Below are positions 784 through 28,699 of a stretch of 64,000 nucleotides of DNA, piece after piece. Numbering within the stretch: position 1 is the stretch's first letter; each line of letters starts with the position of its first letter. A program made the translations under genes and the position numbers. This stretch comes from Escherichia coli. GTDB lineage: Bacteria > Pseudomonadota > Gammaproteobacteria > Enterobacterales > Enterobacteriaceae. Below the pieces are notes generated by a model that was not told the origin of the DNA, did no database searches, and was given only the letters and a program-made list of their open reading frames with translations. The stretch lies in assembly GCF_024298765.1 (NCBI RefSeq), contig NZ_CP101211.1. One strand, 5' to 3'.

Positions 784-3700
784 GTGAAACTTAGAAAAAC
801 AATCACCTCAGCGATTATTGCATCAATGGTTGCCAATACTATGAGTTGGGCTTTTTATGTCACACTCATAAACATGGTAATGACACCACGTGTTTACGCT
901 GCTGACGCTATATTTGACCAGCTCGAAAATAATTTTAACCTTGCAAATCCTAACGCAAATCGCAATGCAACCACCAGTGCTCAGGACATTGTGGAGAAAT
1001 ACAAGAACGCGGATTCAGGCGAGAATGTCAGTGGGAAGATCACCGAGAAATACGTGGGTAAAGCCGAATCCGCTAATCTTAATCTCGGGAAGTATGGGGC
1101 AGGGAACTCTAATGAAAGTGTCATGAAAAATGCCGCATCCGATGGAAAGTCTATTGGTAGCGCCGTACAACTGCCGAGTATGTCTGGAGGGACAATCAAT
1201 TCAAACTACACCAAGGAAGGGGCAAAGCTGCTCTCTCGTGATGCTAATGGCAACATTGGTATAAGCAGTAATCCCAATACTACTCCTGGAACCAAAACAA
1301 ATACGGGAGAGATTTTCAGCTCAGAGCAAAAGCACAGCGATATAAAGTTCAACGCCGCAGATCGTTATGGGGATGAGGATGGCTTTGTTAACGATATAAA
1401 GAATCGGAAAAGCCAGTTATTTGATGCTCAAAGTTATGATGGCGTTGCCTACCGCACCCTCGTAAATGCTAACAAGGACAACCCGGCATCGTCTGTAAAG
1501 CCTAACGATCCCATGTTTACTGCGGGGAGAAATGAGATAACCAATGCTGTTGCTGGTACTGGAAACTGGCTTCAGAACTGTAATGTTGAGACCTCCAAAA
1601 AAACAGTAACCACACACTATCCTGATTACAAAGAGTTCTACTGTAACTCGCCTAAGCAAGATAACTTCAGCAGCTGCACGATAACTCGTGACTTCTCTGT
1701 TCCTGTATACATTTCAGGCGGAAACGGAGACATGTCGATGTGCGGCGATAATTGTGTGCGTATATGGTTTGGTCGCCGTGATGACAACTACTGGAGTGAC
1801 GGGGTATTTAATAACGAACTGACATTAAAATTCCATCCGGATGCAAAATTGGCCTCAGCAAAGATTGTTAACGCGGAGTGGGATGACCACATGCGGGTAA
1901 CACTTGATGGCACGCAGATTTTTGCTCACATAGATGGTGCATATCGAGAAAGTGACTATCCGGCTCCAAAGGGATCTTGGGAGTTAAAAAAATCGTGGAA
2001 ACTCGACAAAGTATACGATGTAACTGAAAAGGTCAGAAAATCAGTTTATGAAGAACCTGATCGTGAAGTGACAATGGCATCCAGAGTCTGGGTTGGTGGG
2101 GGAGGTGAAGGGTACTTTGAGGTTGAGCTGACGTTTGAAAATATGAAGCTCGAAGATAAGCACGTCCAGGAACCAGCTGGTTGTTACGATGCTGTACAAA
2201 CACCAAATACATTCTGCCGTTTCGATCGGTTTAAAGATATGGATGTTGGCACGAAGCGGCTTCCGGAAAGCGTGCTTTCTATGGCAAAGCCGCTGTATGA
2301 AGGCGATAAAGGCTTTCTTACCTGGAAGACTAACCTTGAAGGCTATTTTTGTGATCCATTGGCTAAAGACAAGATTTGCTCTTATGACGCTAGTGGGAAA
2401 ATTATGAAAGACGCTAATGGAAAGGACCTCTGTTACAACTACGAAGAAATTAAGAGTATGCCTGATGCATGTAGTTCTTATAAAAATGATGCAGCATGTG
2501 TACTCGATAAACAAACATGTGCAGAGGGTTGGTTCGATGAGGGCACTAACAGCTGCTACATGTATGAACAGAAATACACCTGTGACAGAGGTAAGGATGT
2601 AGTTCGTGAGGTTGAATCTTCTACAAATGCCTGTGTTGGCATGATCCCATGTTCTGGAGGAACATGCGAAACTGGGCCAAAGGAAGAGAACAACGATTTT
2701 GGAAAAGTTGCGGCTTATTCAAACATGGTTCAGTACATGCAGGGCGAAGCCAAATGCGAAGACCCTAACGATGCCAATTCCTGTTCTGTCTTTGAAGGAA
2801 AACCTGAATGGTGTGGTCGTTCAGTAGGCTTTGTAAATGGCCTGGCAAAGACGGACTGCTGCGAAGCACCGCAGGGAACCGCAGGAGCACTTGAAGGTAT
2901 CATGCTTGCCGGATCTATGATCAGAAACACTAACTGGACCAGAGTTAATGCTCAGCTAATAAAATGGACCGGCGGTGATACAGGTACATGGGCTTCTATG
3001 TCCAATGCGGTCGGTGAGTGGACTGCATCAGCTGGTAAAACAGTAGGGCAAATGTGGAACAATGTCACGAGCTCCTTAACGAGCGTATATGAAAACGTCG
3101 CTGGTAATCTAAGCAGGGCAGTTGGGTCTTCCGCAACTTCTGGAGGGGCAGGAGGTGCTGGCCAGTTGGCACAGGAAACAATGTCCAGCTTCGGTATAGG
3201 TCAGCTTAAGCAGATGGCAATGAAGAAAGCCTACGAATTGCTACCAGATACAGTTCGAGACTTTGTCTTTAAGAACGTTGCTACTACCGGAGGAGAGGTT
3301 GTCTTCTCGGCTGCGGTTCAAAACTTTATGCTTGCATTAAACGTGATCGGTTGGATTTATACAGCCTATCAGGTCACTAAAATGCTTTTAGAAATGTTGG
3401 TAGCATGCGACCAGAAAGAGATGGAAGCTTCTATTCATAAGAATCAAAAATCCTGTTTTACATTAGATACGGAACGATGCGTCAAATATCTGAATGTTGG
3501 TTTCACAAAGAAATGCGTTAAAAAAGCAACAGACATGTGCTGTTATAATTCCATGTTGTCACGCGTTATTATGCAACAAGCTTATCCGCAATTAGGAATA
3601 GACCCTGTCGCCTCTAATTGCGTGGGGCTATCAATAAAGCAAATACAGCAACTGGATTTCGATAAAATTGATCTGACGGAGTGGATTAATGATGCAGTTC

Positions 3701-3972
3701 AGGTAGGAGAAGTTCCTGATCAATATTCAAAATTCTCCGAAGAATCAATTGTGGAAAACTTACCATTCCAGAATGAGAACTATCAACTTCCATCAGAACG
3801 TACCAAGGAAGCAATGGGCGGTGAAGAAAATATGATAAAGGCCAGACAAGAAAATGCTCAGGCTATAAAAGAGGAAAATGTAGATTGTAGCTATTTACCT
3901 CGACCGGCCATATGTGAGGTAGGTTCAACTACGCTGGATCCGGTTACGGGCAAGCAGTTGCCGAAATATTGA
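784..3972 (+). CDS. trhN: Mating-pair stabilisation protein TraN/TrhN (large IncH-type form)
   Basis: 1062-aa ORF with RBS aaggagaaaa upstream, N-terminal signal-like segment, very Cys-rich central/C-terminal region; sits directly after traU-like gene as in F/IncH transfer operons. Confidence 0.6.
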   Translation: MKLRKTITSAIIASMVANTMSWAFYVTLINMVMTPRVYAADAIFDQLENNFNLANPNANRNATTSAQDIVEKYKNADSGENVSGKITEKYVGKAESANLNLGKYGAGNSNESVMKNAASDGKSIGSAVQLPSMSGGTINSNYTKEGAKLLSRDANGNIGISSNPNTTPGTKTNTGEIFSSEQKHSDIKFNAADRYGDEDGFVNDIKNRKSQLFDAQSYDGVAYRTLVNANKDNPASSVKPNDPMFTAGRNEITNAVAGTGNWLQNCNVETSKKTVTTHYPDYKEFYCNSPKQDNFSSCTITRDFSVPVYISGGNGDMSMCGDNCVRIWFGRRDDNYWSDGVFNNELTLKFHPDAKLASAKIVNAEWDDHMRVTLDGTQIFAHIDGAYRESDYPAPKGSWELKKSWKLDKVYDVTEKVRKSVYEEPDREVTMASRVWVGGGGEGYFEVELTFENMKLEDKHVQEPAGCYDAVQTPNTFCRFDRFKDMDVGTKRLPESVLSMAKPLYEGDKGFLTWKTNLEGYFCDPLAKDKICSYDASGKIMKDANGKDLCYNYEEIKSMPDACSSYKNDAACVLDKQTCAEGWFDEGTNSCYMYEQKYTCDRGKDVVREVESSTNACVGMIPCSGGTCETGPKEENNDFGKVAAYSNMVQYMQGEAKCEDPNDANSCSVFEGKPEWCGRSVGFVNGLAKTDCCEAPQGTAGALEGIMLAGSMIRNTNWTRVNAQLIKWTGGDTGTWASMSNAVGEWTASAGKTVGQMWNNVTSSLTSVYENVAGNLSRAVGSSATSGGAGGAGQLAQETMSSFGIGQLKQMAMKKAYELLPDTVRDFVFKNVATTGGEVVFSAAVQNFMLALNVIGWIYTAYQVTKMLLEMLVACDQKEMEASIHKNQKSCFTLDTERCVKYLNVGFTKKCVKKATDMCCYNSMLSRVIMQQAYPQLGIDPVASNCVGLSIKQIQQLDFDKIDLTEWINDAVQVGEVPDQYSKFSEESIVENLPFQNENYQLPSERTKEAMGGEENMIKARQENAQAIKEENVDCSYLPRPAICEVGSTTLDPVTGKQLPKY

Positions 3973-4000: not shown

Positions 4001-4873
4001 TTACTTGGCTTTCAATGTTTTTTCTGGGAAGCCTTTTTTACCGTATTCACCGGTAAAGAGGTAATAATCTTTTCCGTTGATGGAGGCTGCAACACCCCCT
4101 GGAGTTGTTGTATTTGGGCTATCAGAACGGAAAATGATACCCGAAAAATCAGCGCTTGTTTCGTTTCCTTTAAATGGGATGAACACATAACGAATTACAG
4201 CGTAATCACCAGCGGGAAGGTTTAGCTGAGGAATTTCGGTTCCTGTTGCGGGGCGAATCGCCTGAAAGCTGTACATTGAATCTGTAGGGAAAACATCAGC
4301 ATCAGGCTTAGAGGGCAGATCACAGGTACTCCATTTATTGACGACTGCCATATCAATTTTACATGTGGCCAGAGCTGCTTTCTGTTTTTCAGGGTTGTAT
4401 CCAAATGAGGCCTGAGTTGCTTTTGTATGCTCAAAAACATACTTAGCTCCTTCACGTACCAAACTTTCATCATTGTAAGGCAATTTTTTTGGATTGGGGA
4501 CGAACACTAGGTATTGATTGACCTGGATGTATTCGGCGTCAGAAGAACTGTACAAAGAGCCGAGGCTCATGATCCCAAAACCTTTTAGACCGCCTGTTAC
4601 GTAGCCCATCGAACTATTGATGAGATACTTAGAAAGAAAGTTGTCGGCATCCCCTCCAGGAGTAACCTCTTGCTCCTTAAAATTAACGTCGAAACCAGCA
4701 AACGAATAGGCATTCTTGGCGACAGAATCATTTGCTTTAGCATGCCAGTACTGGCCGTGACTGTACGCATTCAGAGCGGTGCCTGGCGTAGTGCCGGTGT
4801 CACCGGCACAACCCGATAGGGAAAAACCAATGACGACAGAAGAGACCAGAGATACTAAACGTAAAAGTTTCAT
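4001..4873 (-). CDS. Putative lipoprotein, unknown function
   Basis: 290-aa ORF; N-terminus MKLLRLVSLVSSVVIGFSLSGCAG has signal peptide plus lipobox (LSGC). Confidence 0.5.
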   Translation of the reverse strand: MKLLRLVSLVSSVVIGFSLSGCAGDTGTTPGTALNAYSHGQYWHAKANDSVAKNAYSFAGFDVNFKEQEVTPGGDADNFLSKYLINSSMGYVTGGLKGFGIMSLGSLYSSSDAEYIQVNQYLVFVPNPKKLPYNDESLVREGAKYVFEHTKATQASFGYNPEKQKAALATCKIDMAVVNKWSTCDLPSKPDADVFPTDSMYSFQAIRPATGTEIPQLNLPAGDYAVIRYVFIPFKGNETSADFSGIIFRSDSPNTTTPGGVAASINGKDYYLFTGEYGKKGFPEKTLKAK

Positions 4874-5052
4874 TTAAAGCCCTTTTTGTAATGTCTTTTG
4901 GAGATGGAACCATTATTCCATAGTCACGCGTTTCACAAACAACCTGATTGCATAAAAAAGGAAAAAAAGTGATTTCCAGTAGAACCAGCAGTACACAAGA
5001 AAAGCGCTTTTATAAAAATGTATAATTATTAAAACGAAGTAATGAGGTTGAA

Positions 5053-6837
5053 ATGGGTAAGCCAACAGAAGAGCAAAGACCTGTTATCGAGAATGCTAGC
5101 GCAAACAATATGGTGATAGCAGCGCCTGGATCAGGCAAATCATTCACCATGATAGAAGCGGTTATATCGATTCTCAAAAAGTATCCATATGCAAGAATCG
5201 GGATGGTGACCTTTACTCGCGCTGCAACAAACGCACTTGCAGCAAAGTTACAAAAGCGATTGAGCAAGAAGGATCTTGACCGGGTGCTGGTGGATACTTT
5301 TCACGGACTCGTTAAGAAGCAACTGGACATGATTCGCTGGCCGGGAAAGATGTTGATAGGGCCAGCACAGAGATCTGTCATTCACCGGGCTTTGAAAGAA
5401 TCCGGTGTAACGATGAAGTTTGCTGAAGCTGAATTCGTTATTGATGCTATCGGCAGAGAAATGGATACGGATGTGATTTCAGTTCGGCATAACAGACAAC
5501 AGATCCATTTATTTAATACCTATCAGGCGTTATGCCAGAAAGACCATGTGGCGGACCTCAATGCTCTTTCAAAATTTGTTGTCGGTCAAATGCATTCGGG
5601 AAAAATGCGCACGTTAGATTTGACACATTTGATAGTAGACGAAGTTCAGGATACTGACTCTATACAATTCTCATGGATAGCATTGCATACAAGAGCTGGA
5701 GTCTATACGAGTATAGTTGGAGACGATGATCAGGCCATCTACTCCTTCAGATCCTCAGGAGGAGTCAAAATATTTCAACAGTTTGAAAAACACTTCAGAC
5801 CTAACATATTTTACTTAAACACATGCTTTAGGTGTGAACCTGAAATTTTAGAGGTGGCCGGAGCACTGATAGGAAAGAATGTTTACCGTTATGCCAAAGA
5901 GTTACGCTCGGCAAAAAAGGGAGGAGGAAAGGTCACTTTTCGTTCATATGTAGATATGGAGGAACAGATACAGGGTATTTTAAGCCTTATAAATCAGGAT
6001 CCACATGGATGGGCAATTCTAAGCCGCAATAATGCTCACTTGGATGAGCTAGAAAGTTTGATCGAACAGCCAGTAATTCGTTACGGAGGTAAATCATTCT
6101 GGGATGAAAAAGAAACAAGCGATGTGTTAAGCCTTATGGCCTTTTTCCGACAATCAAATGATCCTCGCTTAATGAAGAGAGTATTGGCATTGTTTGGAGA
6201 ACAGGAATCAGTTTTGGATGAAGTGGCATTGAGTATGAGAGGAAGAAAAGTTACTTTTGGCGACCTTGCCATCCCGGAGGACAGTTCTCTCGAAACAAAA
6301 ACATTACATTCAAACTTCGTGCGCTTTACCCAGGAAAGTACTGATAAAGTTGAGATAGCAAAACGTTTCGCCAACCTTACGAAATGGATGGAATCGTCGT
6401 CAATCAAGATGAGGAGTAATAAAGGTACAGCAACCTTAACAAAAATTGCTTTAGACACTTGTAAACAGTGGGCAGAAAAGACTGGTTGGATGAATATGAT
6501 CAATCGTGCTGCTGCAATGTCATTAGGCCCTAGGAAGAAGGACGAGGAATACAGCCCAGAGAAAGTAGTCCTATCAACCTTGCATGGTTCAAAGGGTCTT
6601 GAGTGGAATAAAGTAATAATAATGAGTTGTAATGCGGATCAGATACCAAGTAAAAGATCAGTTGGGGAGGAGGCAATAGAAGAAGAAAGACGTTTGCTTT
6701 ATGTTGGATTTACGCGTGCAGAAAAGCAACTTTTTGTAATGTGGTATGGTGACCCTTCTTTCTTTTTAAGAGAATGCAGTGAAGAAAAGATAAAAGAAGC
6801 AGCTAATATTCGAATTTCTCCAGTTTATACAGAATAA
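5053..6837 (+). CDS. UvrD/Rep-family (SF1) DNA helicase-like protein
   Basis: 594 aa; Walker A APGSGKS near N-terminus, Walker B-like LIVDEVQD, C-terminal YVGFTRAEKQL motif typical of UvrD-like helicases; RBS gaggt upstream. Confidence 0.7.
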   Translation: MGKPTEEQRPVIENASANNMVIAAPGSGKSFTMIEAVISILKKYPYARIGMVTFTRAATNALAAKLQKRLSKKDLDRVLVDTFHGLVKKQLDMIRWPGKMLIGPAQRSVIHRALKESGVTMKFAEAEFVIDAIGREMDTDVISVRHNRQQIHLFNTYQALCQKDHVADLNALSKFVVGQMHSGKMRTLDLTHLIVDEVQDTDSIQFSWIALHTRAGVYTSIVGDDDQAIYSFRSSGGVKIFQQFEKHFRPNIFYLNTCFRCEPEILEVAGALIGKNVYRYAKELRSAKKGGGKVTFRSYVDMEEQIQGILSLINQDPHGWAILSRNNAHLDELESLIEQPVIRYGGKSFWDEKETSDVLSLMAFFRQSNDPRLMKRVLALFGEQESVLDEVALSMRGRKVTFGDLAIPEDSSLETKTLHSNFVRFTQESTDKVEIAKRFANLTKWMESSSIKMRSNKGTATLTKIALDTCKQWAEKTGWMNMINRAAAMSLGPRKKDEEYSPEKVVLSTLHGSKGLEWNKVIIMSCNADQIPSKRSVGEEAIEEERRLLYVGFTRAEKQLFVMWYGDPSFFLRECSEEKIKEAANIRISPVYTE

Positions 6838-7231
6838 TTCGATATGGGCATTTACTTATGCTTAAAGCTATAGTATAAAAACAATGAGCTTAAATATCAG
6901 CTCCCAAATTTGAGTAACTTTGCTTAAAGTTACTTTCGCGTTAAGCGTTGATTTAGCCGTGAAAAGCGGCCAGCTTAAACAAGCTGTAAGACACCACCGG
7001 CAAAATGTCACCTTTGTCGCTGGTGCACTTCCCATGCCTGAAAAAGGCAATCTGAATTTACCAAACCGTAACTAATTTAGCTCCTCCTGGAGCTATTTTT
7101 GTTGCGTACTTCTAATGCCAGATAGTATAAATCAGGCGGTTCATAGCTTACGGGAGATGAATGACAGGCTTTGCCTTCGTGTTGAAACAAAAAATTGTTT
7201 CTTCCTTCTTACTATATATAGGTGACCCCAA

Positions 7232-8104
7232 ATGTCTAAAAATAAAGCTCGCAGTAAAGCCCTTCATCAAACCTTTAGTGAAATTATTCCAGAGATGGAT
7301 AAGGCGCTAAACAAACAGCTCTTAGAAGTTCTGATGAAATATACAGAACGTGATAATGAACTGATTGTTATTTTGAATGAGGACGGCCCAAATATCATTG
7401 AACTTAAGTCTCTTAAGCCTGTGTCTTTGTTGGCCGAAAAGCTTTCTGCTTATTCAAGCTATTATCATGTGGATGTTGTGGAGCTCGTGGTCAAGAAAAT
7501 TGATTTCGAAGGAGCTTATAAGCTTCTTAAAGCTTCCCCAGATGTACCACTTTTTAAAAGCTTAACTGAACTGGATAAATATCTTGTTGAGGAGTTTGAA
7601 AAATTCGGATTAAATTCATTTCTTGACGTGGATAATCTGGATTACTCACTTGAAAAAGCCAGTGAACTCAAAAATGAGCAGTTAATAAATTGGGTTTCGG
7701 ACATCATTTGCAAACGTGAAAAATTAACTTTACGTAAGCGTTTTGATGTCGCAGTAAAGGCCCACTACGAAAATGTAGAAAAAATGTATGATACCATTCG
7801 TCCGTTAATGAAAAAACTGGGTTTCCCAGAAGATCTCATGACGCACACCTTTAGTGAGTTAAGCGTTTTTGAAACTAAAGGATGGGACCATGCAATAAAA
7901 TCGAAAATTGAGACTCTCGCTAAGCGTGAAACTCAATATTTAGATGATGCGGCTAAAGCAGAGAATCGACGTCTTGTAACAGAGAAGTTGGAGAACTCTT
8001 TAGCGATTGCACCAACTAAACCAACAAGAAATTGGTTACATATTGCCGGAATTGCCTGTTTGGTAGTCTGCACGTTCATGTATGTAACTAATAAATTTAT
8101 TTAA
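7232..8104 (+). CDS. Hypothetical protein with C-terminal transmembrane anchor
   Basis: 290-aa ORF, charged helical body, hydrophobic C-terminus (WLHIAGIACLVVCTFMYV). Confidence 0.4.
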   Translation: MSKNKARSKALHQTFSEIIPEMDKALNKQLLEVLMKYTERDNELIVILNEDGPNIIELKSLKPVSLLAEKLSAYSSYYHVDVVELVVKKIDFEGAYKLLKASPDVPLFKSLTELDKYLVEEFEKFGLNSFLDVDNLDYSLEKASELKNEQLINWVSDIICKREKLTLRKRFDVAVKAHYENVEKMYDTIRPLMKKLGFPEDLMTHTFSELSVFETKGWDHAIKSKIETLAKRETQYLDDAAKAENRRLVTEKLENSLAIAPTKPTRNWLHIAGIACLVVCTFMYVTNKFI

Positions 8105-8161
8105 TCCTGTTAAGGGGGAACCCTAACGGGGCTTCTCTTTGAACAAATCGAGGAGCGGAAA

Positions 8162-8539
8162 ATGTCATATCTTGAATATATCAATGAAGTAAAAGTGTCC
8201 GGGATAGTTATCAGTGCTGTGGAGAAAAAAATGACTGACCAGAGTATAGGTTTGTTAATAAAGCTCAAAAATAGGATGAAGACAGAAGTTGATGGTGAAA
8301 TCACTGAGAGAGAATTTTCAGTTCAAATCAAGGTGTCGCCTGAAATGTATTCAACCTGTTTCACTGGTATAAATCAGGGTGATGAGTTGATGGTCTCCGG
8401 TTATATTGTTGTCGATACTATTATGATTGAAGGGAGAGAACATCCTCTTGACTACATGAGAGTGGTAGCAACAAGTAAGTTGGCTCACATACCTAAACCT
8501 CTAAAAGGTTTTGGACAAAGTAGCTTTAATCAGATCTGA
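8162..8539 (+). CDS. Hypothetical small protein, possibly OB-fold (SSB/PriB-like pattern)
   Basis: 125-aa ORF with RBS gaggag; alternating beta-like segments (VKVSGIV, FSVQIKV, MVSGYIVV); perfect hairpin terminator immediately downstream. Confidence 0.35.
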   Translation: MSYLEYINEVKVSGIVISAVEKKMTDQSIGLLIKLKNRMKTEVDGEITEREFSVQIKVSPEMYSTCFTGINQGDELMVSGYIVVDTIMIEGREHPLDYMRVVATSKLAHIPKPLKGFGQSSFNQI

Positions 8540-8599
8540 CATTAAACCCACCCTAAAGGGGAGAAATCCCTTCATGGGATTTCTCCTTTTGGAGTCCCC

Positions 8600-9577
8600 A
8601 TGAAACAAAAATTTAGGGCTACTGCAATAAGTAGTAATCAACTTAGTTTTTTTTCTATACTCGATATAGATGAAGATGAAATAACGCAAATAGTTGATTC
8701 ACCCAAAGAGCATTTAAATGATGCTTACACGTCCGGATTAAACTTTAAATCAGAAGAAAGTAACATTTCTGAGATAAATTATGATTCTGAAAGGCGTGAA
8801 AATCACCTTTATGAAAAATCCAAATTACTTAAAAATCAGATTTTGCATACAATTAATTTTGCAACAGAAACAGATTATCTATATACGGTTGAAGAATATA
8901 ACCCAGATTTGGGTGGTCTGGTAATAGAATGGACCCCTGAGGATGTGTATGTTGTTTTTCTATCCGCTATGGAAGAGTCTTTGGAAATCATTAAAGAACT
9001 AGTGTTGAGGAGAAAGTTATTCTTCAAAGATGACAATGGTAATATCACAGTGAATCCACTTTTAGAAGCTGAAACACGGTGGTATATGTCAAAATCATTT
9101 GAATACACTTGTTTATCTCATGGACTTGATGCATGTGAATTTAGAGCGGAATTAAAATCATGGCTCTATTATCATTCGCATCGTTCGATTAGTGAAAACA
9201 CGAAATTAGCTGAATGCAGGAATGATGATGAAATCATTTTGCATGATTGCAATGACGATATGGGCTGGGACATCTTCTTTGATCAGGATTATTTAATGTC
9301 AGAAAAAAAACTGGCTGTTAAATGGACTGACAGGGAAATTATGGATGTTTACATAAAAGCTTTTAAATCCTCATTAGAGTTGTTTGACGAGCTTGTTTCA
9401 TGTGATCTGTTAACTAAACGAAACGCTTTTGGCAAGTTAGAAATCAATCCAATATTCGAAAATCATTTTGAATGGATCATGTCTGAAGCTTTTGAAATAG
9501 TGGGAAATCATCTTGGTTATAATGTGCCTCAAATCAGGAAACTGATGGCAACTATTTGCCAAATGAATCTCAAATAA
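8600..9577 (+). CDS. Hypothetical protein
   Basis: 325-aa ORF in the same-strand gene block; no recognisable motif. Confidence 0.35.
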   Translation: MKQKFRATAISSNQLSFFSILDIDEDEITQIVDSPKEHLNDAYTSGLNFKSEESNISEINYDSERRENHLYEKSKLLKNQILHTINFATETDYLYTVEEYNPDLGGLVIEWTPEDVYVVFLSAMEESLEIIKELVLRRKLFFKDDNGNITVNPLLEAETRWYMSKSFEYTCLSHGLDACEFRAELKSWLYYHSHRSISENTKLAECRNDDEIILHDCNDDMGWDIFFDQDYLMSEKKLAVKWTDREIMDVYIKAFKSSLELFDELVSCDLLTKRNAFGKLEINPIFENHFEWIMSEAFEIVGNHLGYNVPQIRKLMATICQMNLK

Positions 9578-9634
9578 AATGCCACTGGCAAACATCTGCC
9601 AGAGGGCGGTGTTTGCATTTTACCGGAGTTAAAA

Positions 9635-10693
9635 ATGTCTAATGCCGCTATGAAGTTAAATGAAACATCTTCTGATGCTTATGAAAAATTAGAAGCTCTT
9701 CTTTCCCCGGATGTTATAAAGTTAAAACATTATGTGGATAAAGGTGAGTATCTTTTAGTTCTAGCAAAGGACCTTTTTGGTATTCCAGAAATGGATCCAA
9801 AGATGGCTGTGCCTGTTTTCAAAACTAAAACCTCGTATCGAGCTCCGCTGAACAAAGACTACATACCAAATCCCCGAATACTTGAACAAGTGGTTAAACT
9901 GCTTATCAGTCCGGATATAGATTTAAGTGTGTGTCTTAAAGGTGAGTCCGGTTCTGGCAAGACTGAAATGGTAATGTACATTAGCCACATGATGAATTGG
10001 CCGCTGACAATTAAGCAGATCAACAGCAATATTCGAGTTGATGAGCTTGAAGGTGAGCGCAGTCTTAATGGTGGTAATACAGGTTTTGTACACAGCGATT
10101 TGGTAACGGGATTTCGTAATGGTCACCTCATTCTTCTGGATGAAGTGGACAAAATCGATCCTGATACGGCAGCAAAACTTCACATGCCCATTGAACGTAA
10201 GCCCTGGTCACTCAGTGCTAATGGTGGTGAGGTTATAACTGCTAATGGCTACACGCGATTTATTGGTACTGCAAACACAAACATGAGTGGAGGCGCTCGC
10301 CGGTTCGTTTCTTCTCAACGTCAAGATGCAGCTTTTATAAAGCGGTTCTTGATAGTTGAAATGGAGAAGCCCGACAAAGTTGCTTTAACCAATGTGCTTA
10401 CTAAACGATATAGCTCTTTGCCTTTTCAGGTCATTGAGAAGTTCGTAAGAGTAGCGATTGCAGTAAATGACTCTGGTACAGAAGACAGTGTGATGGATAT
10501 TCGTCAATTAGTAGCTTGGGTTGGCACGTCGATGACGTTAAAAACCTTTAGTCTTCTTGACACTTTCAAAATAGCTTTTGCTTCTGCTTTACCTTTACAT
10601 GTGGTCGATCTTGTTCTTCAAGCTATAGATCTTTCTCTTGGCGAAGACAAGGATAAATCGCTGGAGTATTTCACAGCAAAAAAGTCGAGTTAG
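9635..10693 (+). CDS. AAA+ ATPase, MoxR/CobS-like
   Basis: 352 aa; Walker A GESGSGKT, Walker B hhhhLLDEVD, size and layout of MoxR-class single-AAA proteins. Confidence 0.6.
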   Translation: MSNAAMKLNETSSDAYEKLEALLSPDVIKLKHYVDKGEYLLVLAKDLFGIPEMDPKMAVPVFKTKTSYRAPLNKDYIPNPRILEQVVKLLISPDIDLSVCLKGESGSGKTEMVMYISHMMNWPLTIKQINSNIRVDELEGERSLNGGNTGFVHSDLVTGFRNGHLILLDEVDKIDPDTAAKLHMPIERKPWSLSANGGEVITANGYTRFIGTANTNMSGGARRFVSSQRQDAAFIKRFLIVEMEKPDKVALTNVLTKRYSSLPFQVIEKFVRVAIAVNDSGTEDSVMDIRQLVAWVGTSMTLKTFSLLDTFKIAFASALPLHVVDLVLQAIDLSLGEDKDKSLEYFTAKKSS

Positions 10694-11049
10694 ATGGGAT
10701 TTGTTATGAAACCTCTGATATTTGTATCTCAGAGTTATCCCATCTTGAATTTAGTGCGTTTTTAAGTACGGATGGTGCTGCTACCATTGCTATAGCAAAA
10801 AACGGAACTAATTTTACTGGACTTATGCAACTGAATAACGACTATTCTTTATTGTTTTATCATGATGGTAAAATAAATATGGAAGGTCTGATTAAACAAA
10901 TGGAATTAAAAGGTTATATGTATCAGGGAGCAATGGGCAATGATGATGTTGTTGCTGAGTTTCCCGGTATTCTTTTAATTTCACCAGAGTAGCTTTAATA
11001 TCAACCCTATCGGGAAATCTTTCCCGTTGGGGAGGGTTTCCCCTTTTTT

Positions 11050-12189
11050 TTGGAGAAACCCATGACTTTAAATACTTCAATGCTTAACAAAGTATCTGCA
11101 AAACAAATCTCTGAGAATTTTGCAAAATCATATCCAGATTTACTGGAAGGTGCAGTTATAACAAAAATTGAAATAAGTGGCTGTCAAGGATCGCGTCGAA
11201 CCGATAAAATCGATTTGTCTTATGATGGAGATGATATTACGGATCAAAAAAGCGTATCTAAAAGCGAAGTACGCTGGATTGACATAAAAGCCCTTAGCTT
11301 CAAAAGTACGATTACCAGCAGAATATCAACTCTTTGCTCACGCTTGTGCATCCGCTATAGCAATATGTGGATTTTACCAGTATCCAGTATGGAAGAGTTT
11401 CTGGAAGGGGCCCAAGAGATTGAACGAGAGTTTCAGGCAGGTATTCAAAACGTTGTAGACAATTATGAGATGCATATTGAGGCTGAAAAAAATAGAAGCC
11501 CAAGAATGTCTTCTTTGATTGATCAGTTGAAATTAACTAAAGATGATTTCATAAAATCCTTTAGATTTAATATTGCTCACTTTATTCCTTTTACGCCTAT
11601 TAGCGTTGAAGGTGATGAAACCCAGGACTACTATCAGGAACAATTGATAACAGATCTGGCAGAAGAAGCAATGAAGGTTTATGAAAAAATTAGCAAAAAT
11701 AACAATTTGCGCTCAAGTACTATTGACCGACTGAAGCAAATGCAAAATAAGATCATTAGCTTCATGTTTATACATAAAGAGGCGGCAGTACTTGCAGAAG
11801 CTATAAAACACATAATGAATAATTTACCTAAAGGTGCCATTTCTGAACCTCGCGACGTTGCGGTGTTACAGCAGTGGTTTTATTTCATGAGTGATGCTTC
11901 AATGTTAAAGCGTATTATTTCAGGAGAGCAAAAGGTTACTGACTGGTTGGAATCTATTACCAGATCATTTAATCAAAGCTCACAAACAGAACCGAACGCG
12001 CTACAGAACACAGGTATTGAAGCTATTTTAGATTCAACAAATGTGTTCCAGGTTGAACCTGTCGTAGAGAACGATATAAATAACAGCACGTTTTCAAACA
12101 CTGATCCTGTAGCTGAACCTGAGAAATCAGTTTCGCAACAGGAAGACAATGTTGAAAATGGTTTTGATATCGAGCTCAAAGGCTGGTAA
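11050..12189 (+). CDS. Hypothetical protein
   Basis: 379-aa ORF between the AAA+ and vWA genes; hairpin/T-run upstream and downstream. Confidence 0.35.
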   Translation: MEKPMTLNTSMLNKVSAKQISENFAKSYPDLLEGAVITKIEISGCQGSRRTDKIDLSYDGDDITDQKSVSKSEVRWIDIKALSFKSTITSRISTLCSRLCIRYSNMWILPVSSMEEFLEGAQEIEREFQAGIQNVVDNYEMHIEAEKNRSPRMSSLIDQLKLTKDDFIKSFRFNIAHFIPFTPISVEGDETQDYYQEQLITDLAEEAMKVYEKISKNNNLRSSTIDRLKQMQNKIISFMFIHKEAAVLAEAIKHIMNNLPKGAISEPRDVAVLQQWFYFMSDASMLKRIISGEQKVTDWLESITRSFNQSSQTEPNALQNTGIEAILDSTNVFQVEPVVENDINNSTFSNTDPVAEPEKSVSQQEDNVENGFDIELKGW

Positions 12190-12266
12190 CTGTTTGCTTT
12201 ATTAAAAACCCCAGATGGGTACTTCACCATCTGGGTGAGTACCCCTTTTTTATAAAGAGGTATTCT

Positions 12267-14279
12267 ATGAAATTAGATCTTAAATCATCACCGCGCCATA
12301 TTAAGCGTTTACAGAATATAGCAAAAGTCATTAGCGGCTTAGGCGATGTAAGAGTTGTAATAGACGACAATACCAAAGGACCGTATTTTGATCCTGTAAA
12401 TAAAGTTTGTGTTTTACCAAACGGCGATTATAGCGATGATGACTTTGTCAGTCTGATTGAAGGTTTTACCTGTCATGAAGCTGGTCATGGTCGCTATACC
12501 GACAGCGAGGTTTACAGTGACGCCTTTAATAGTGTTCTCAAGTCATCTGAAGGGTTTACACGCTTCGATGACGGAATGAATGCAGAGTTTGAGAGCCTCG
12601 CTGAGAAACGTAAAGCTTATAGCAGGGCAAAACGTCTTACCGGGCTTATAAATCTGTTCGATGATGTACAGATGGAAGAGAAGGTTGGTAACGATTATCC
12701 GGATGCAAAGCGGCGGCTTGCAGCCACTTACGCACTGATGGTTAAAGCCGGAAGGATGACTCCTGATATATCTTCTCGTCCGGAAAATCCTGTCCTATTT
12801 ATTGAGTGGTATCTGCTTAACTCATTGCGAGTAAAAGTCCTTCAGCAGGCAGGTCACAAAGAAACACTCGATCCGTTTTTTGACTATGCCCAAAAGATAC
12901 TTTCTCCAGTAATTTCTGATGTTGAGGAAATTTTTCATGATGCTCTTGGTTGTGAAAATACTCAGGGCTGTGAATCCCTTGCTCGTAAGACCCTGGCTCT
13001 TTTAGAGAGACTGCGGGATGAGGCAAGGGAACAACAGCAGCAGACAGAGCAGGAGGAGCAGGAGGCATATGATGAATCCGAGACCGAGACCGAGACCGAT
13101 ACCGAATCAGAAGATAAATCGCTTGAGTCGACTGATAGTCGTGAGGATGATTCTGAGGACGATAGTGAAGGTCAGGCAGATACTTCCGATAACTCTGATC
13201 TTGCTCAAGAGGGATGTTCTGAGCCTTCAGAACTTGCTGAAGATAACGAGGGAAATAATGAACCCACCGGTGGCAATCCCACAGGTGATAACATTATTGA
13301 AGACGATACTGATGCGATTAACCCTTCCGAGAGTGAATCAGATGAAGCCAGTTCGACTAACGTTGAAGATGAAAGTAACTTTTCATCGGCTCAATGGGAG
13401 ATACTGGCAGATTTGTTGGATGCCTTTCTTGGCAGTGATGAGGATAGCGAAGATTATCACGATGCTTTGGCTAAAGAGATTGAAGGTATTGCATCAAAAG
13501 TATCCGATGACGTGAAAGCCGAATTCGGTGCTTCTGAATGGGATATCCCTGATCTCCTTATCGATTTGAATGTTTACAATGAGGCTTTGTCTCTGAGTCA
13601 TTCAATCGGTAGCGACTTGTCTGTTTTACAGCAGGTTAAAATGCGTGGCCGAAACAAAACTCATGAGCGTGGAATTACCTTCGATGGAAATCGATTAATT
13701 CTGTCACCAATGGGAGTTCGTGATGTCTTCAGAGCTCAAAGCGAATCTAAAAATAGAGGGCATGTTGGCCTCGTATTAGTTCGTGATATTTCAGCGTCAA
13801 TGGCTAATGATGAAAGATATATTCATGCCATTAAGTCAGATCTTGCTTTATCGATGGCCGCTGAAAGTTTGTCAAAAATGCATGTCTCCAATATAGTCTT
13901 TCCCTTCAAGGAAAGTGAATTTGAGATTATCAAAACGTTTGATCAAAGCGTTGAGGAATCTCTATCGAAATTCACTCTTGGATGTAAGGGTTATTATACC
14001 CCTACGGGATCGGCTTTAATGGCAGCTGTTGATCTGTTACTTGACAGCCAATTCGATAGGAAAATAATTTTTCTTATAACTGATGGTTATCCGAATAAAT
14101 CGGAATTTACTATCGGCGAAGTTATGGAAAAGGCTAAATGTAATGGAATAGAAATCGTTGGTGTTGGTATTAAGACTGATGAAATAATTGGTTTTGAAAC
14201 GGACACTTTCGTAACAGTTGATGATACTTCTTTATTGTCTATTGAAGTCAGTAAGCTAGTTCATCAAATACTTTCTTAA
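12267..14279 (+). CDS. vWA-domain protein with N-terminal HExxH motif and acidic linker (CobT-like architecture)
   Basis: 670 aa; HEAGH motif near residue 70, long D/E/S/T-rich low-complexity linker, C-terminal vWA with MIDAS-like DISAS and downstream TDG. Confidence 0.6.
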   Translation: MKLDLKSSPRHIKRLQNIAKVISGLGDVRVVIDDNTKGPYFDPVNKVCVLPNGDYSDDDFVSLIEGFTCHEAGHGRYTDSEVYSDAFNSVLKSSEGFTRFDDGMNAEFESLAEKRKAYSRAKRLTGLINLFDDVQMEEKVGNDYPDAKRRLAATYALMVKAGRMTPDISSRPENPVLFIEWYLLNSLRVKVLQQAGHKETLDPFFDYAQKILSPVISDVEEIFHDALGCENTQGCESLARKTLALLERLRDEAREQQQQTEQEEQEAYDESETETETDTESEDKSLESTDSREDDSEDDSEGQADTSDNSDLAQEGCSEPSELAEDNEGNNEPTGGNPTGDNIIEDDTDAINPSESESDEASSTNVEDESNFSSAQWEILADLLDAFLGSDEDSEDYHDALAKEIEGIASKVSDDVKAEFGASEWDIPDLLIDLNVYNEALSLSHSIGSDLSVLQQVKMRGRNKTHERGITFDGNRLILSPMGVRDVFRAQSESKNRGHVGLVLVRDISASMANDERYIHAIKSDLALSMAAESLSKMHVSNIVFPFKESEFEIIKTFDQSVEESLSKFTLGCKGYYTPTGSALMAAVDLLLDSQFDRKIIFLITDGYPNKSEFTIGEVMEKAKCNGIEIVGVGIKTDEIIGFETDTFVTVDDTSLLSIEVSKLVHQILS

Positions 14280-14350
14280 TAAACTCTACCCAATCGGGGC
14301 AAAAGGCCCCGGTGGGTCTTTTTGCTCCATGAAGGAATAAGGAGCAAAAT

Positions 14351-14572
14351 ATGACTCAGATAAAAACTTACCGTGTAGAACATGAAAAAGTCGGTGCGAT
14401 GCATAAAGTCCGTATTTTCGGACGTGTTGGTGAAGTTATAAGCAATGATAGCCCTCAGGAAAGAATCTTCCGCGAAGTCACTATAGCGGAGGGTAATAGC
14501 CAGCAGGCTGCGTTACTTGTAGATAACTACATACAGCGTCTTGAGAATAATGGCTTCACGACTGAAGCATAA
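14351..14572 (+). CDS. Small hypothetical protein
   Basis: 73-aa ORF with RBS aaggag upstream; palindrome terminator GAGGGCCCCCGGGCCCTC downstream. Confidence 0.3.
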   Translation: MTQIKTYRVEHEKVGAMHKVRIFGRVGEVISNDSPQERIFREVTIAEGNSQQAALLVDNYIQRLENNGFTTEA

Positions 14573-14613
14573 ATGTTGAGGGCCCCCGGGCCCTCTTTCT
14601 TAAATTCTGCGTT

Positions 14614-15918
14614 GTGGGTTTCTCCCTGTCTTCTGCACCGCAGAAGGCATTGAGAAACTCACAATGCCAGATAAGAGAGATCATCATGACTTATGCATCC
14701 CCGGCTCTTCGTCGTAATCCACAGGAAGTATCTGAACACTTTATTAAACTCGTTCATGCTCGAATTGCTGAAGTGTCTGGCTGGAAGTATATATTCGAAA
14801 GAATACCTGCTTTCAAAGACGCTTGTGCAAAAGCCCCGAGCCAGGTTCCTTGCCCGTTTACTGGCGCAGGGAAATCGAAGTTTCGTTTCCGACAAAAAGA
14901 CCTTTATACCGGATGTGCGATCCATAATGACTTTCCGGTAAATGAGTTTTGCGACGGAATTGATGTTCTGGCGAAATATTATGAATTAAGTAAAACGCAG
15001 ACTTGCAAAAAGATTCTCTCAGATTTTTTCGGGATGGATCTGCATGCTCCGTTAACTGACGCCGACATTGAAAATGAACGACGCTATAAATCAGCAGTTC
15101 GTGCCACAGAAACTCTTGACCGAGAGGAAGTGGCAAAGCGAATGCGAAAACTTGATGTGATGTATCACTATACCGGTGAAATCAAGCCTAATACTCCTGT
15201 TGCTTTGTACCTCCGTAATCGTGGGATCTCCCGCTTACTGAGTCACTTACCAAAGGATTTAGGCTTTAATAACCGGATCTACTATTGGGATAAAGATAAG
15301 CAGAAATCGATTATCTATCCGGGAATGATTGCGATCTATCGTGACACCCGAGGTCGGCCTCTGACTATTCATAGAACATACGTAGACAAAAATGGTGATA
15401 AGGCACCTGTAGAAAATCCAAAGCTGATGATGAAGCCTCCTGCCGATATGACAGGTGGCTCAATTCAGTTGTTTGACCCTCACTATGATTCAGGTAGTTC
15501 GACCTGGACACTGGGAGTGGCTGAAGGGATCGAGAACGCGCTTTCTGTTGTAGAAGCGACTTCAACACCATGCTGGGCAGCCAGCTCCGCATGGTGCCTT
15601 GAAAACGTTACTGTTCCTGATTTTTTACTGCCTCCGCCGGATGTAAAATCTATAAACTTTTATATCTGGGCGGATAAGGATATTGCTAACTCACAAGGCA
15701 CTCGTGCCGGTATTGAAGCTGCTCAGCGACTTCAAAGCCGCATGGTTGAGTTTTTGGCTAAACGATATCCCGCATCAAAGCTGACAATTGAAGTCTTCGA
15801 ACCAGCACAAGATATTCCTGATGGGAAAAAGGGTATCGACTGGAACGATGTTCTCCAGTTAACAGGGCAGGATGGATTCCCGATTCACTGGGCTCCTGAA
15901 TGTCTTAATCAGCTGTAA
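14614..15918 (+). CDS. Primase-like protein (P4-type primase zinc-binding motif plus Toprim-like segment)
   Basis: CPFTGAGKSKFRF resembles the CPxCGGxDRFRF Zn-binding motif of primase-helicases; later GVAEGIENALS resembles a Toprim acidic motif; true start may be internal ATG at 14686. Confidence 0.45.
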   Translation: MGFSLSSAPQKALRNSQCQIREIIMTYASPALRRNPQEVSEHFIKLVHARIAEVSGWKYIFERIPAFKDACAKAPSQVPCPFTGAGKSKFRFRQKDLYTGCAIHNDFPVNEFCDGIDVLAKYYELSKTQTCKKILSDFFGMDLHAPLTDADIENERRYKSAVRATETLDREEVAKRMRKLDVMYHYTGEIKPNTPVALYLRNRGISRLLSHLPKDLGFNNRIYYWDKDKQKSIIYPGMIAIYRDTRGRPLTIHRTYVDKNGDKAPVENPKLMMKPPADMTGGSIQLFDPHYDSGSSTWTLGVAEGIENALSVVEATSTPCWAASSAWCLENVTVPDFLLPPPDVKSINFYIWADKDIANSQGTRAGIEAAQRLQSRMVEFLAKRYPASKLTIEVFEPAQDIPDGKKGIDWNDVLQLTGQDGFPIHWAPECLNQL

Positions 15919-20667: not shown

Positions 20668-21443
20668 TCCTTTTGCTTCAGTCCAAAAAAGTAACTTTGG
20701 TTGGCTGAAGACACTTGTCTATGACAATGTAAAATCTGTCGCTGGCATCTTCTTTTAGCTTAACCAAATTTTTATCTAACCCAGTGGGGAAGTCGCTTCC
20801 CTTCTGGGGCACTTCCTCTCAAATTCGAGGTAGTGTATATGACACATTCATCTGATGATAAAAACTATGTCCGAGCAGTTCTGAGTTATCTTGGCATAGA
20901 TTTTGATGAGGCGGATATAGTATTAAGTGTTTGCCATTGTCAAAGTGACGAGCTTTCTTTTACCTGTAATATCAAAGCTATTGAACTCAAGAATGCTGTT
21001 GATTTATATGTCGATAGTATCTCTGAGAATGAAATAGAAGCTTTAAACAGAGAATCTTTAAAATCGCGACTCTGTTACTTTCTTGAGGTGTTTGACGCAG
21101 TCTCTGGTCAGTACCTTGAAATTTCAGGAAAACACTTTGCAACTAGTCGTTTTGAATATGATGATGTTTGTAGTGAAGTTCTTAGCATGTCTAATGATGT
21201 TTCTCAGTCGAAAGGTTATGACCGGGATGAATATAACAGACTGATGCAGGTTGATGGTCAGGTTATGATTGCCCGTTTTGCTTTGCAACAGTTCTGGGAT
21301 ACTCATTTTATTGGACTAATAACATTTGTATCTGAGTCTATAACATCGAGCCTCTATAAAGCTTATGAAACTTTTAGTGATATTAGTTTGGCTTGCTATA
21401 AACTGAGTGAATATTCTTATTCACGCTCGGTAATGACTCCAAC

Positions 21444-21947
21444 TTATTGATAGTGTTTTATGTTCAGATAATGCCCGATGACTTTGTCATGCAGCTCCAC
21501 CGATTTTGAGAACGACAGCGACTTCCGTCCCAGCCGTGCCAGGTGCTGCCTCAGATTCAGGTTATGCCGCTCAATTCGCTGCGTATATCGCTTGCTGATT
21601 ACGTGCAGCTTTCCCTTCAGGCGGGATTCATACAGCGGCCAGCCATCCGTCATCCATATCACCACGTCAAAGGGTGACAGCAGGCTCATAAGACGCCCCA
21701 GCGTCGCCATAGTGCGTTCACCGAATACGTGCGCAACAACCGTCTTCCGGAGCCTGTCATACGCGTAAAACAGCCAGCGCTGGCGCGATTTAGCCCCGAC
21801 GTATCCCCACTGTTCGTCCATTTCCGCGCAGACGATGACGTCACTGCCCGGCTGTATGCGCGAGGTTACCGACTGCGGCCTGAGTTTTTTAAATGGCGGA
21901 AAATCGTGTTGAGGCCAACGCCCATAATGCGGGCGGTTGCCCGGCAT
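21444..21947 (-). CDS. insB: IS1 InsB (transposase made by frameshift fusion with InsA)
   Basis: 167-aa ORF matching IS1 InsB as recalled. Confidence 0.8.
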
Positions 21948-27332: not shown

Positions 27333-27353
27333 AGTTATGCGCCCGTGAGGGCG

Positions 27354-28538: not shown

Positions 28539-28699
28539 CGGGATACACTGGTTTTAATTACAGGTCATTTTAGCACTCATGTACCTGGTTATGAACAGGG
28601 TGGAAACAACGAAAAAGGTTGTGAAATCGTTAGGCTTAAGTGAAAAATGATATTAAGATTATCCCTGGCCAGTTGAGGCCTGTCTAAAGAAGGTTGATT

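Follow-up and report, generated by a model that had tools for sequence, protein, structure and literature searches.

Which process is served by the helicase gene at positions 5053–6837, lying between the edge of a conjugative transfer region and an AT-rich set of genes on the same strand? The window, a stretch of 64,000 nucleotides, is IncHI2 plasmid backbone with 100% DNA identity to pAPEC-O1-R and many other plasmids. Plasmids of the IncHI1 and IncHI2 groups rank among the major carriers of multidrug resistance, that of typhoid and mcr-1 included. The first-pass annotation rightly saw two possible affiliations for the gene, with transfer or with the downstream module; the long-named trhI went unrecognized. 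On sequence evidence either affiliation may hold, and comparative context ties the family to both neighbors.

trhI and its neighbors on the IncHI backbone

The RefSeq CDS in pAPEC-O1-R has the same coordinates as the ORF at 5053–6837 (+) and is named trhI (“IncHI-type conjugal transfer helicase TrhI”). The ORF is therefore an already named and annotated gene, encoding a UvrD/Rep-type helicase of the IncHI resistance-plasmid backbone. It begins with ATG and encodes a 594-aa SF1A (UvrD/Rep/PcrA-like) protein identical to WP_000517886.1, the same gene as trhI of the IncHI2 plasmids R478 and pAPEC-O1-R. In the IncHI1 plasmids R27 (R0003) and pHCM1, TrhI has 82% identity to that of the window and occupies the same position after trhN and a lipoprotein gene. 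Between IncHI2 and IncHI1 trhI, dN was 0.12 with synonymous sites saturated, which identifies trhI as a real gene rather than a chance ORF and points to strong purifying selection. Among the ∼1396 IncHI1/2 records that carry the adjoining lipoprotein gene, ∼1391 also carried trhI, a core gene of >1300 IncHI plasmids. The window had no second UvrD-like gene.

Upstream, the placement after trhN and a lipoprotein gene, at the edge of the Tra2 transfer region, was as first annotated. trhN (784–3972, +) encodes a TraN-type mating-pair stabilization protein homologous to TraN of pRA1 (E 1e-31), and closes the AN transfer operon (PMC7366339). Convergent with it is the gene for a 290-aa lipoprotein (R27 R0004, ‘Orf4’; 4001–4873, −), with a signal ending in ...FSLSGC and the lipobox LSGC. 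This lipoprotein gene had 76–78% identity in IncHI1 and 41–43% in Klebsiella IncHI1B-type plasmids, and its expression is very high in R27. Neither BLAST nor phmmer gave a signal between the lipoprotein and IncC Sfx, or between the 290-aa gene downstream of trhI and AcaB, remote homology being possible in both cases.

Downstream, a module co-oriented with trhI (7232–15918, +) begins with three genes of no assigned function and includes genes for an AAA_5 ATPase (9635–10693, +), a DUF3150 protein (11062–12189, +), a CobT-like VWA protein (12267–14279, +) and a DUF7146/Toprim protein (14686–15918, +). It is homologous to the genes that follow traN-sfx-acaB in pRA1 (IncA), and the same array contains a Tus-like gene (25175–26134). 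The G+C content dropped between trhN (0.44) and trhI (0.41) and was 0.40 further downstream, with 0.36–0.38 in 1-kb windows between 7 and 10 kb, so that the earlier description of the module as AT-rich holds.

A Shine-Dalgarno sequence, GAGG (5045–5048, +), lies 4 nt 5′ of the trhI ATG and is kept in IncHI1. Further upstream is a perfect −10 hexamer, TATAAT (5021–5026, +), which is read from the sequence as a putative proximal trhI promoter lacking a good −35; because of the poor −35, it was missing from the consensus-scan list. GTATAAT is common to IncHI2 and the IncHI1 plasmid R27, and in pHCM1 it is still present downstream of an IS1 insertion. Rfam detected no RNA elements around trhI (E up to 1). 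The flanking intergenic regions had no inverted repeats and just two short two-copy direct repeats, one of them ATAGTATAAA at 6870 and 7122.

Fold and relationships of the TrhI protein

The Pfam domains UvrD-helicase (114 bits), UvrD_C (113 bits) and UvrD_C_2 span residues 6–565 of the 594, and the extra nuclease or other domain for which a search had been suggested was thereby ruled out. The intact Walker A and C-terminal UvrD-type motif of the first reading were borne out, as AAPGSGKS (motif I, residue 23) and EEERRLLYVGFTRA (motif VI, residues 543–556), respectively. The DExx motif (motif II) is VDEVQD (residues 195–200), and further helicase motifs are VGDDDQAIYSFR (residues 222–233) and TLHGSKGLE (residues 509–517). 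Motifs I–VI, Ia included, were invariant in the TrhI family (24 sequences, down to 25% identity).

The AF2 model of TrhI (pLDDT 89.6, pTM 0.82) had its best PDB matches by Foldseek in UvrD (2is1/2is6), Rep (1uaa) and PcrA (1pjr), with E-values of 1e-28 to 1e-30 and TM-scores of 0.65–0.71. TrhI has the four-subdomain fold 1A/1B/2A/2B, and all subdomains were populated in the alignment to UvrD. The separation-pin β-hairpin in 2A (UvrD 615–626, with Y621) seems to be absent from the family, as judged from the alignment, in which about 12 residues were missing in 11 of 12 members, and from the predicted model, which had no hairpin after strand 556–565. The C-terminal tail was missing in all 12 aligned members. 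TrhI is a compact SF1A motor protein with intact catalytic motifs, predicted to translocate and unwind DNA 3′–5′ with the use of ATP.

UvrD and Rep of E. coli and PcrA of Geobacillus, the best sequence and fold matches, share with TrhI all seven-plus SF1 motifs and the 1A/1B/2A/2B architecture. Identity in the structural alignments was just 20–24%, however, each TrhI subdomain was somewhat shorter, and TrhI lacks the UvrD pin hairpin (615–626) and the UvrD C-terminal extension (648–720). Scores against the NCBIfam equivalogs were far below every cut-off: 179.9 bits against 951 for Rep, 175.7 against 1144 for UvrD, 158.6 against 911 for PcrA, 91 against 543 for helicase IV and 50 against 419 for HelD. 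The ∼180 bits against cut-offs of ∼900–1150 rule out orthology of TrhI with UvrD, Rep or PcrA, and helicase IV and HelD were rejected likewise. The housekeeping orthology that the first-pass annotation had named as the finding that would speak against it was not what the scores gave (176–180 bits against cut-offs of 951–1144).

These scores bear on the possibility that trhI arose by capture of a housekeeping UvrD/Rep paralogue, serves no function specific to the plasmid and persists only as a neutral or mildly host-helpful gene. The shared fold and motifs agree with such an origin, as does the moderate, constitutive expression of trhI in R27. Against it stand the equivalog scores and low identities, pin and tail deletions that are specific to the family, strong purifying selection on a gene core to so many IncHI plasmids, and a distribution which, unlike that of UvrD, Rep and PcrA, is confined to MOBH-type mobile elements, at conserved positions and over an identity range of 25–100%. 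Capture of this kind is highly improbable, and has already been largely refuted by the equivalog scores and synteny.

It is equally improbable that TrhI is a defense or anti-defense helicase, such as a Gabija GajB-like or other helicase-based immunity component. GajB, too, is an SF1A helicase of the UvrD-like kind and about as long as TrhI, and PADLOC GajB profiles matched TrhI over its full length with up to 143 bits. In addition, a Desulfobacterales integrative element carries, near an integrase gene, a relative with 26% identity that has an AAA_23-type ATPase gene two genes upstream of it, a setting that resembles a defense arrangement. However, the GajB scores were below generic Rep/UvrD scores and therefore probably reflect the common SF1A core, and the best structural matches were UvrD, Rep and PcrA. 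No GajA-type partner (an OLD-family ATPase-Toprim nuclease) or Pfam nuclease domain adjoins trhI, and the flanking genes had no PADLOC hit; Gabija and other defense systems were rejected because the partner gene is missing. The context of trhI is conjugative rather than that of a defense island, and transfer and DNA-metabolism genes neighbor every family member at ≥27% identity. Two relatives with 24–26% identity (L018 and L019) were set outside the TrhI family because of their defense-like island and chromosomal mfd contexts.

Transcription and genomic contexts of the TrhI family

The TrhI family, whose relatives have 25–83% identity, was always found on MOBH-type conjugative elements. A new observation is that the helicase gene borders transfer genes on one side and a module of SSB, AAA_5, DUF3150, VWA and Toprim genes on the other. 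Of ten distant loci, seven had transfer genes and eight had module genes no more than 10 kb away from the helicase. Three arrangements, which link the helicase to MOBH conjugation, were found: the helicase followed traN or traU (IncHI1, Klebsiella IncHI1B type, Vibrio, L009 and L011); it adjoined traI_2, the coupling-protein gene and dtrJ (L010, L012 and L013); or it ended a TraI-TraD-DUF4400 operon (Burkholderia pMBR02). That the family is tied equally tightly to the SSB/AAA_5/DUF3150/VWA/Toprim genes is a point against a conjugative helicase.

A link to transfer regulation comes from the gene directly upstream of the helicase, which had a direct match to the IncC transfer activator AcaB in four loci (L006, L010, L012 and L014). 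In L013 this gene is AcaB-like indirectly, by resembling the L006 protein. In L010 and L013, the AcaB-like gene overlaps the helicase start (stop/start codons). In IncHI, trhI occupies the place that acaB has in IncA/C; IncC acaB is under the control of the AcaCD transfer regulon (PMC11493245).

A competing explanation places trhI at the head of the downstream module, taken as one for DNA metabolism or establishment, with a role in plasmid replication, recombination or repair. The helicase could, like Rep, be an accessory enzyme that clears protein roadblocks (Tus/Ter of the plasmid itself, for example) or, like UvrD, remove RecA from plasmid single-stranded DNA. Besides the frequency of module genes near the distant loci, this explanation draws on the arrangement of trhI, co-oriented with the array starting at 7232 and never parted from it in three IncHI lineages. 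Insertions (IS1, Tn9/Tn21, IS200/605 and a toxin-antitoxin pair) fall instead between the lipoprotein gene and trhI, and physically part trhI from trhN and the lipoprotein gene. In Vibrio sp. SS-MA-C1-2 no transfer genes were present in the 3.6 kb of upstream sequence covered. The Tus-like gene belongs to the same array, pRA1 carries a different UvrD-like gene right after tus and kfrA, and a pin-less SF1A motor would suit, partly by inference, a translocase that strips proteins from DNA. On the other side, L011 had no module genes within 10 kb and L009 only the Toprim gene, whereas transfer genes adjoined the helicase in both.

Expression also argues against membership in the module. In microarray data, R27 trhI changed 1.13-fold between 25 and 37°C, whereas the downstream cluster R0204–R0002 was induced 3- to 23-fold at 25°C, showing no co-regulation. 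The gap of 394 bp between trhI and the gene at 7232 includes a terminator-like hairpin (7 bp stem, four G-C pairs) followed by TTTTTGTTGC (7078–7105, +), a consensus match of a type as numerous in shuffled sequence. The microarray data and this hairpin likely set trhI apart transcriptionally from the downstream cluster, and its own proximal promoter together with a likely terminator would make it a monocistronic unit between the trhN operon and the thermoregulated cluster. Weighing both sides, a role as the first module gene is possible, though on the doubtful side. The module may itself be related to conjugation, given its primase-like and SSB genes and its induction under transfer-permissive conditions, so that the transfer and module explanations are not cleanly exclusive.

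The absence of trhI induction at the transfer-permissive temperature is likewise a point against a conjugative helicase. In an htdA mutant, trhI was derepressed 8.7-fold; since 139 of 181 expressed genes rose, this derepression is non-specific and was dropped as support for a role in transfer.

A possible motor for MOBH conjugative DNA processing

We tentatively propose, as the best of the readings, that TrhI may be a plasmid-encoded, partner-dependent motor for MOBH conjugative DNA processing, acting in a PcrA-like mode. A further new observation is that MOBH relaxases, the IncHI TraI included, have neither an ATPase nor a helicase domain. The relaxases of R27, L010, L012, L013 and pMBR02 were devoid of a Walker A motif, and TraI_2 was the sole Pfam family above cut-off in the four scanned (R27, L010, L013 and pMBR02). 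TrhI would serve the MOBH relaxosome, whose relaxase TraI itself has no such domain: the 3′–5′ SF1A motor would be loaded at the nicked oriT, track along the non-transferred strand and peel off the T-strand. Having neither the pin hairpin nor the C-terminal interaction tail in the alignment and model, TrhI is probably a translocase that needs a partner and does not unwind DNA alone. A broader proposition is that the TrhI proteins form a clade of pin-less SF1A motors specific to mobile elements, whose evolution went hand in hand with that of the helicase-less MOBH relaxases and whose genes once shared an operon with acaB. They would be dedicated conjugative helicases or translocases and cis-encoded counterparts of the host PcrA that ICEBs1 and rolling-circle plasmids use, loaded by the relaxosome at oriT, with a partner protein providing the DNA wedge; this is conceivable but rather unlikely.

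Reportedly, trhI is not among the genes that the mutational study of R27 Tra2 names in its abstract as essential or modulating. A transfer defect of a trhI mutant was not reported in the accessible full texts, in which trhI appears only in gene listings, and the gene is outside the 35 ‘tra genes’ listed in PMC7366339. Partial redundancy of TrhI with host UvrD/Rep is probable, and would account for the omission of trhI from the essential tra genes in the R27 literature.

The role of this gene bears on how DNA is unwound for the transfer of elements with helicase-less MOBH relaxases, such as those of the IncHI, IncA/C and SXT types. Should TrhI prove to be the motor for this, it would present an enzymatic target specific to the plasmid, and the conservation of a backbone gene whose functional name is >20 years old would be accounted for. 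If TrhI belongs instead to the SSB/AAA_5/DUF3150/VWA/Toprim module, it would offer a handle on a gene block widespread in MOBH elements.

Plasmids of the IncA/C group share this backbone architecture and likewise encode a MOBH relaxase, yet have no TrhI-family member; a cis-encoded TrhI is therefore no general need of MOBH relaxases. The IncA/C plasmid pRA1, of the MOBH/MPF_F type, does encode an SF1 helicase with a UvrD-helicase domain, WP_012766370.1. This protein is shorter (503 aa), is encoded at another locus, right after tus and kfrA and directly upstream of the Mpf genes traF-traH-traG, and resembles TrhI at the level of motifs only (pairwise E 3e-6).

The working analogy for TrhI is PcrA acting with RepC/RepD, or with the ICEBs1 relaxase NicK and the processivity factor HelP. 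Rolling-circle initiators make use of PcrA, UvrD or Rep, and NicK of PcrA; with RepC/RepD and NicK, the initiator or relaxase nicks the origin but has no helicase activity, and unwinding from the nick falls to an SF1A 3′–5′ helicase. PcrA is host-encoded in these systems, whereas TrhI would be encoded by the element itself. The name trhI appears to derive from ‘DNA helicase I’, the TraI of F or TrwC of R388, with which TrhI shares the presumed role of unwinding plasmid DNA for transfer. TrhI has no relaxase domain, as a MOBF relaxase-helicase would, and scored 18 bits against a cut-off of 27 for AAA_30 (RecD-like). F TraI and TrwC are SF1B (RecD-like, 5′–3′) helicases fused to a MOBF relaxase, whereas TrhI is a free-standing SF1A helicase alongside a separate MOBH relaxase.

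Identity and domain structure of TrhI

The ORF at 5053–6837 (+) was a single ATG-initiated frame of 594 codons, preceded on the same strand by a GAGG Shine-Dalgarno site (5045–5048) and a perfect TATAAT (5021–5026), both read from the sequence. In RefSeq this very CDS carries the name trhI ('IncHI-type conjugal transfer helicase TrhI', WP_000517886.1), and the R27 (IncHI1) orthologue, with 82% identity, is locus R0003, 'trhI, DNA helicase' (supplement of PMC7366339); the gene is already known and already annotated. Many IncHI2 plasmids, including pAPEC-O1-R, were 100% identical over 4.2 kb around trhI, a region matched by 1114 PLSDB records at ≥99% and by 281 at 60–80%. TrhI occurred at ≥80% identity in about 1391 IncHI1/2 records and the neighbouring lipoprotein in about 1396, and trhI is a core backbone gene of these plasmids. 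Between IncHI2 and IncHI1, its dN was 0.12 and synonymous sites were saturated.

The intact Walker A and C-terminal UvrD-type motif reported in the first-pass annotation were both present, as AAPGSGKS at residue 23 and motif VI, establishing an intact helicase. A Pfam search for an extra nuclease or other domain, which that annotation had raised, returned UvrD-helicase, UvrD_C and UvrD_C_2 over residues 6–565, leaving no room for a further domain. All SF1 motifs were invariant in an alignment of 24 family members (25–83% identity to the query, nearly all 587–623 aa). The AlphaFold model built from this alignment (pLDDT 89.6, pTM 0.82) matched best, among solved structures, full-length UvrD, Rep and PcrA (E ~1e-30, TM 0.65–0.71). 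That TrhI is a captured housekeeping helicase of this fold is very unlikely: orthology was rejected, with the Rep, UvrD and PcrA equivalog models scoring 159–180 bits against cut-offs of 911–1144.

When aligned with UvrD and Rep of E. coli, the family showed all four subdomains, each somewhat shorter. The 'separation pin' β-hairpin (UvrD 615–626, including Y621) was absent from 11 of 12 members, and the C-terminal extension (UvrD 648–720) from all those aligned; the TrhI model has a single strand (556–565) leading into a PSFF motif and a terminal helix. It is the pin that parts the two strands in UvrD, PcrA and RecBCD, and a motor that lacks one of its own depends on a partner. Given this role and the missing pin, we infer that TrhI would act as a translocase or a partner-dependent unwinder.

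PADLOC GajB profiles also matched TrhI, at up to 143 bits, which is below the scores of the generic helicase models, and the flanking genes included none resembling GajA; TrhI was therefore rejected as Gabija GajB. A role as a defence helicase is highly improbable, although remote relatives at 24–26% identity lay in a defence-like island, as well as in a chromosomal mfd neighbourhood. This identity range was taken as the edge of the family, because gene context changes there.

Transcription and neighboring genes

The description in the first-pass annotation held in all its parts; it had correctly placed the helicase after trhN (784–3972, +) and a lipoprotein gene (4001–4873, −; R27 R0004, 'Orf4'), which is convergent with trhN and encodes 290 aa with the lipobox FSLSGC. 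The module that it had called AT-rich was indeed so: mean G+C fell from 0.44 in trhN to 0.41 in trhI and 0.40 in the array at 7232–15918 (+), with 1-kb windows down to 0.36 between 8 and 10 kb. The array consists of co-oriented genes, three without a family match followed by AAA_5 ATPase, DUF3150, CobT-like VWA and DUF7146/Toprim genes.

The GTATAAT −10 element and Shine-Dalgarno of trhI were conserved between IncHI2 and R27, and both were retained in pHCM1, where IS1 sits 114 bp upstream of the gene. A hairpin with a T-run, a consensus match only, was found at 7078–7105 inside the 394-bp gap between trhI and the next gene. On R27 microarrays, trhI gave 560 units at 25°C and 494 at 37°C (1.13-fold), whereas the nine genes directly downstream (R0204–R0210, R0001, R0002), the counterparts of the array, were 3- to 23-fold up at the transfer-permissive 25°C (PMC7366339). 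The same study gives trhN as the last gene of the AN transfer operon and leaves trhI out of its 35 tra genes (PMC7366339). Taken together, trhI looks like its own transcription unit, co-transcribed with neither neighbor. Its 8.7-fold rise in an htdA mutant says little, because 139 of 181 expressed genes also rose (PMC7366339). The 394-bp gap also held two exact copies of a −10-like 10-nt direct repeat, ATAGTATAAA (6870–6879 and 7122–7131), which could serve the thermoregulated cluster as promoters or as sites for a regulator, or may have arisen by chance in AT-rich DNA.

R0004 was the top-expressed gene of the region in R27 (9779 and 5433 units). Its product resembles the 286-aa Sfx of IncC/IncA in size, LSGC lipobox, position and orientation convergent with traN; BLAST against pRA1 Sfx gave no similarity, so that the likeness is one of positional analogy only. 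Sfx is a surface-exclusion lipoprotein acting against the donor's TraN (PMC11493245), which suggests the 290-aa lipoprotein as a candidate TrhN-specific surface-exclusion factor of IncHI plasmids.

Related plasmids have repeatedly taken up insertions in the gap between the lipoprotein gene and trhI (4874–5052): IncHI1 plasmids such as pAKU1, pSTY7 and those of related isolates carry Tn9/Tn21 junctions 'cat-trhN' and 'mer-trhI' (PMC3139670), and in a Klebsiella IncHI1B-type plasmid the gap contains two IS200/IS605-TnpB copies and a RelE/Phd toxin-antitoxin pair. Segments 21429–22196, 29756–31709 and 57028–61848 were unmatched by the compared pAPEC-O1-R stretches and are probably insertions or variable cargo; the remaining window was collinear up to ~62.7 kb (99.8–100%). 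A Tus-like gene at 25175–26134 (+) may bear on trhI, because UvrD-type helicases displace Tus.

Gene context across the family and the link to AcaB

The order traN, minus-strand gene of ~290 aa, helicase and, further on, AAA_5, DUF3150 and VWA was kept in four lineages, namely IncHI2 (the query), IncHI1 (helicase 82% identical), Klebsiella IncHI1B-type plasmids (49%) and a Vibrio campbellii megaplasmid (31%); the three enterobacterial lineages also had a Toprim gene after VWA. Distant members (26–33% identity) stood in other arrangements. The helicase directly followed TraU and preceded DUF7146/Toprim in locus L009, and stood between TraN plus a minus-strand gene and unknown small genes in L011. 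In L010 and L012 it was convergent with dtrJ, a coupling-protein gene and traI_2; an SSB/PDDEXK block lay divergent from it and ran on to AAA_5, DUF3150 and VWA in L010. L014 had the same upstream layout, its contig ending just past the helicase gene. In L013 the helicase was divergent from traI_2, coupling-protein gene and dtrJ, with bactofilin, a primase-like Toprim and DUF3150 on the other side. Burkholderia pMBR02 showed the order TraI, TraD, unknown gene, DUF4400, unknown gene, helicase; Hydrogenophaga (L006) had AcaB then helicase, with SSB and AAA genes nearby; and in Vibrio sp. SS-MA-C1-2 the helicase was followed by SSB, AAA_5, DUF3150, VWA and Toprim. Of 10 distant loci, 7 had transfer genes within 10 kb of the helicase and 8 had module genes. 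Array-type blocks occur widely among MOBH elements and are often accompanied by SSB and recombinase/exonuclease genes.

In five of these loci the gene just upstream either overlapped the helicase start codon (L010, gene pair at 9279–11767; L013, pair at 9147–11788) or ended 5 to 110 nt before it (L006, pair at 8019–10782; L012, pair at 8901–11857; L014). Against pRA1 AcaB in a small database, the upstream proteins gave E-values of 2e-15 (L010), 3e-7 (Hydrogenophaga), 4e-5 (L012) and 5e-4 (L014); the Hydrogenophaga protein also matched the AcaB crystal-structure sequence 6n8b (E 4e-4, whole PDB) and tied the L013 protein to AcaB (E 1.5e-21). On sequence similarity, all five belong to the family of AcaB, the transfer activator of IncC/IncA. 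To our knowledge, a conserved acaB-helicase pair in distant MOBH elements has no earlier description. The AcaCD transfer regulon drives acaB in IncC (PMC11493245), so where the pair survives the helicase probably belongs to the transfer regulon. What is added to the existing annotation is modest: restriction to MOBH elements, position at the junction, pairing with AcaB, and loss of pin and tail at the family level.

A proposed role in conjugative DNA processing and comparison with IncA

A Pfam scan of four relaxases, R27 TraI (1011 aa) and those of L010, L013 and pMBR02, gave TraI_2 as the sole family above cut-off, and TraI_2 was also the sole entry in the precomputed Pfam record of the L012 relaxase; a Walker A motif was absent from all five. 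Such motor-less MOBH relaxases support a model in which a separate helicase would unwind plasmid DNA from the relaxase nick. The gene name fits this model, because trhX genes were named, by Taylor-laboratory convention, after F traX, and F traI is 'DNA helicase I'. We tentatively read TrhI as a PcrA-like helicase that works with a partner in conjugative DNA processing. Somewhat less likely is that it belongs to the downstream module for replication, recombination or establishment, a reading with which the frequent nearness of module genes agrees and the flat temperature response of R27 trhI does not. The two are not fully exclusive, because the module itself is induced under transfer-permissive conditions.

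The IncA plasmid pRA1 has the order traN, sfx (286-aa lipoprotein), acaB, AAA, bet, exo, DUF3150, VWA and, further on, Toprim. Its TraN matched the IncHI2 homologue at E 1e-31, and four proteins of the IncHI2 array are homologous to pRA1 genes after traN-sfx-acaB (AAA 5e-26, DUF3150 8e-5, VWA 2e-18, Toprim 4e-32). By matching order and homologous flanking proteins, trhI in IncHI fills the slot held by acaB in IncA/C. The simplest history would be that the ancestor had acaB and the helicase paired here, and that the helicase was retained in IncHI and the activator in IncA/C. Weighing against the conjugative reading of TrhI, pRA1 has a MOBH relaxase and no TrhI-family gene; MOBH systems can evidently be served by helicases of the host or by other plasmid-borne ones. 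It encodes a remotely related UvrD-like protein of 503 aa between tus-kfrA and traF-traH-traG (27046–30915 in the pRA1 locus); the similarity of this IncA/C protein to TrhI is at the level of motifs only, and its gene also lies directly upstream of Mpf genes and beside a Tus-like gene.
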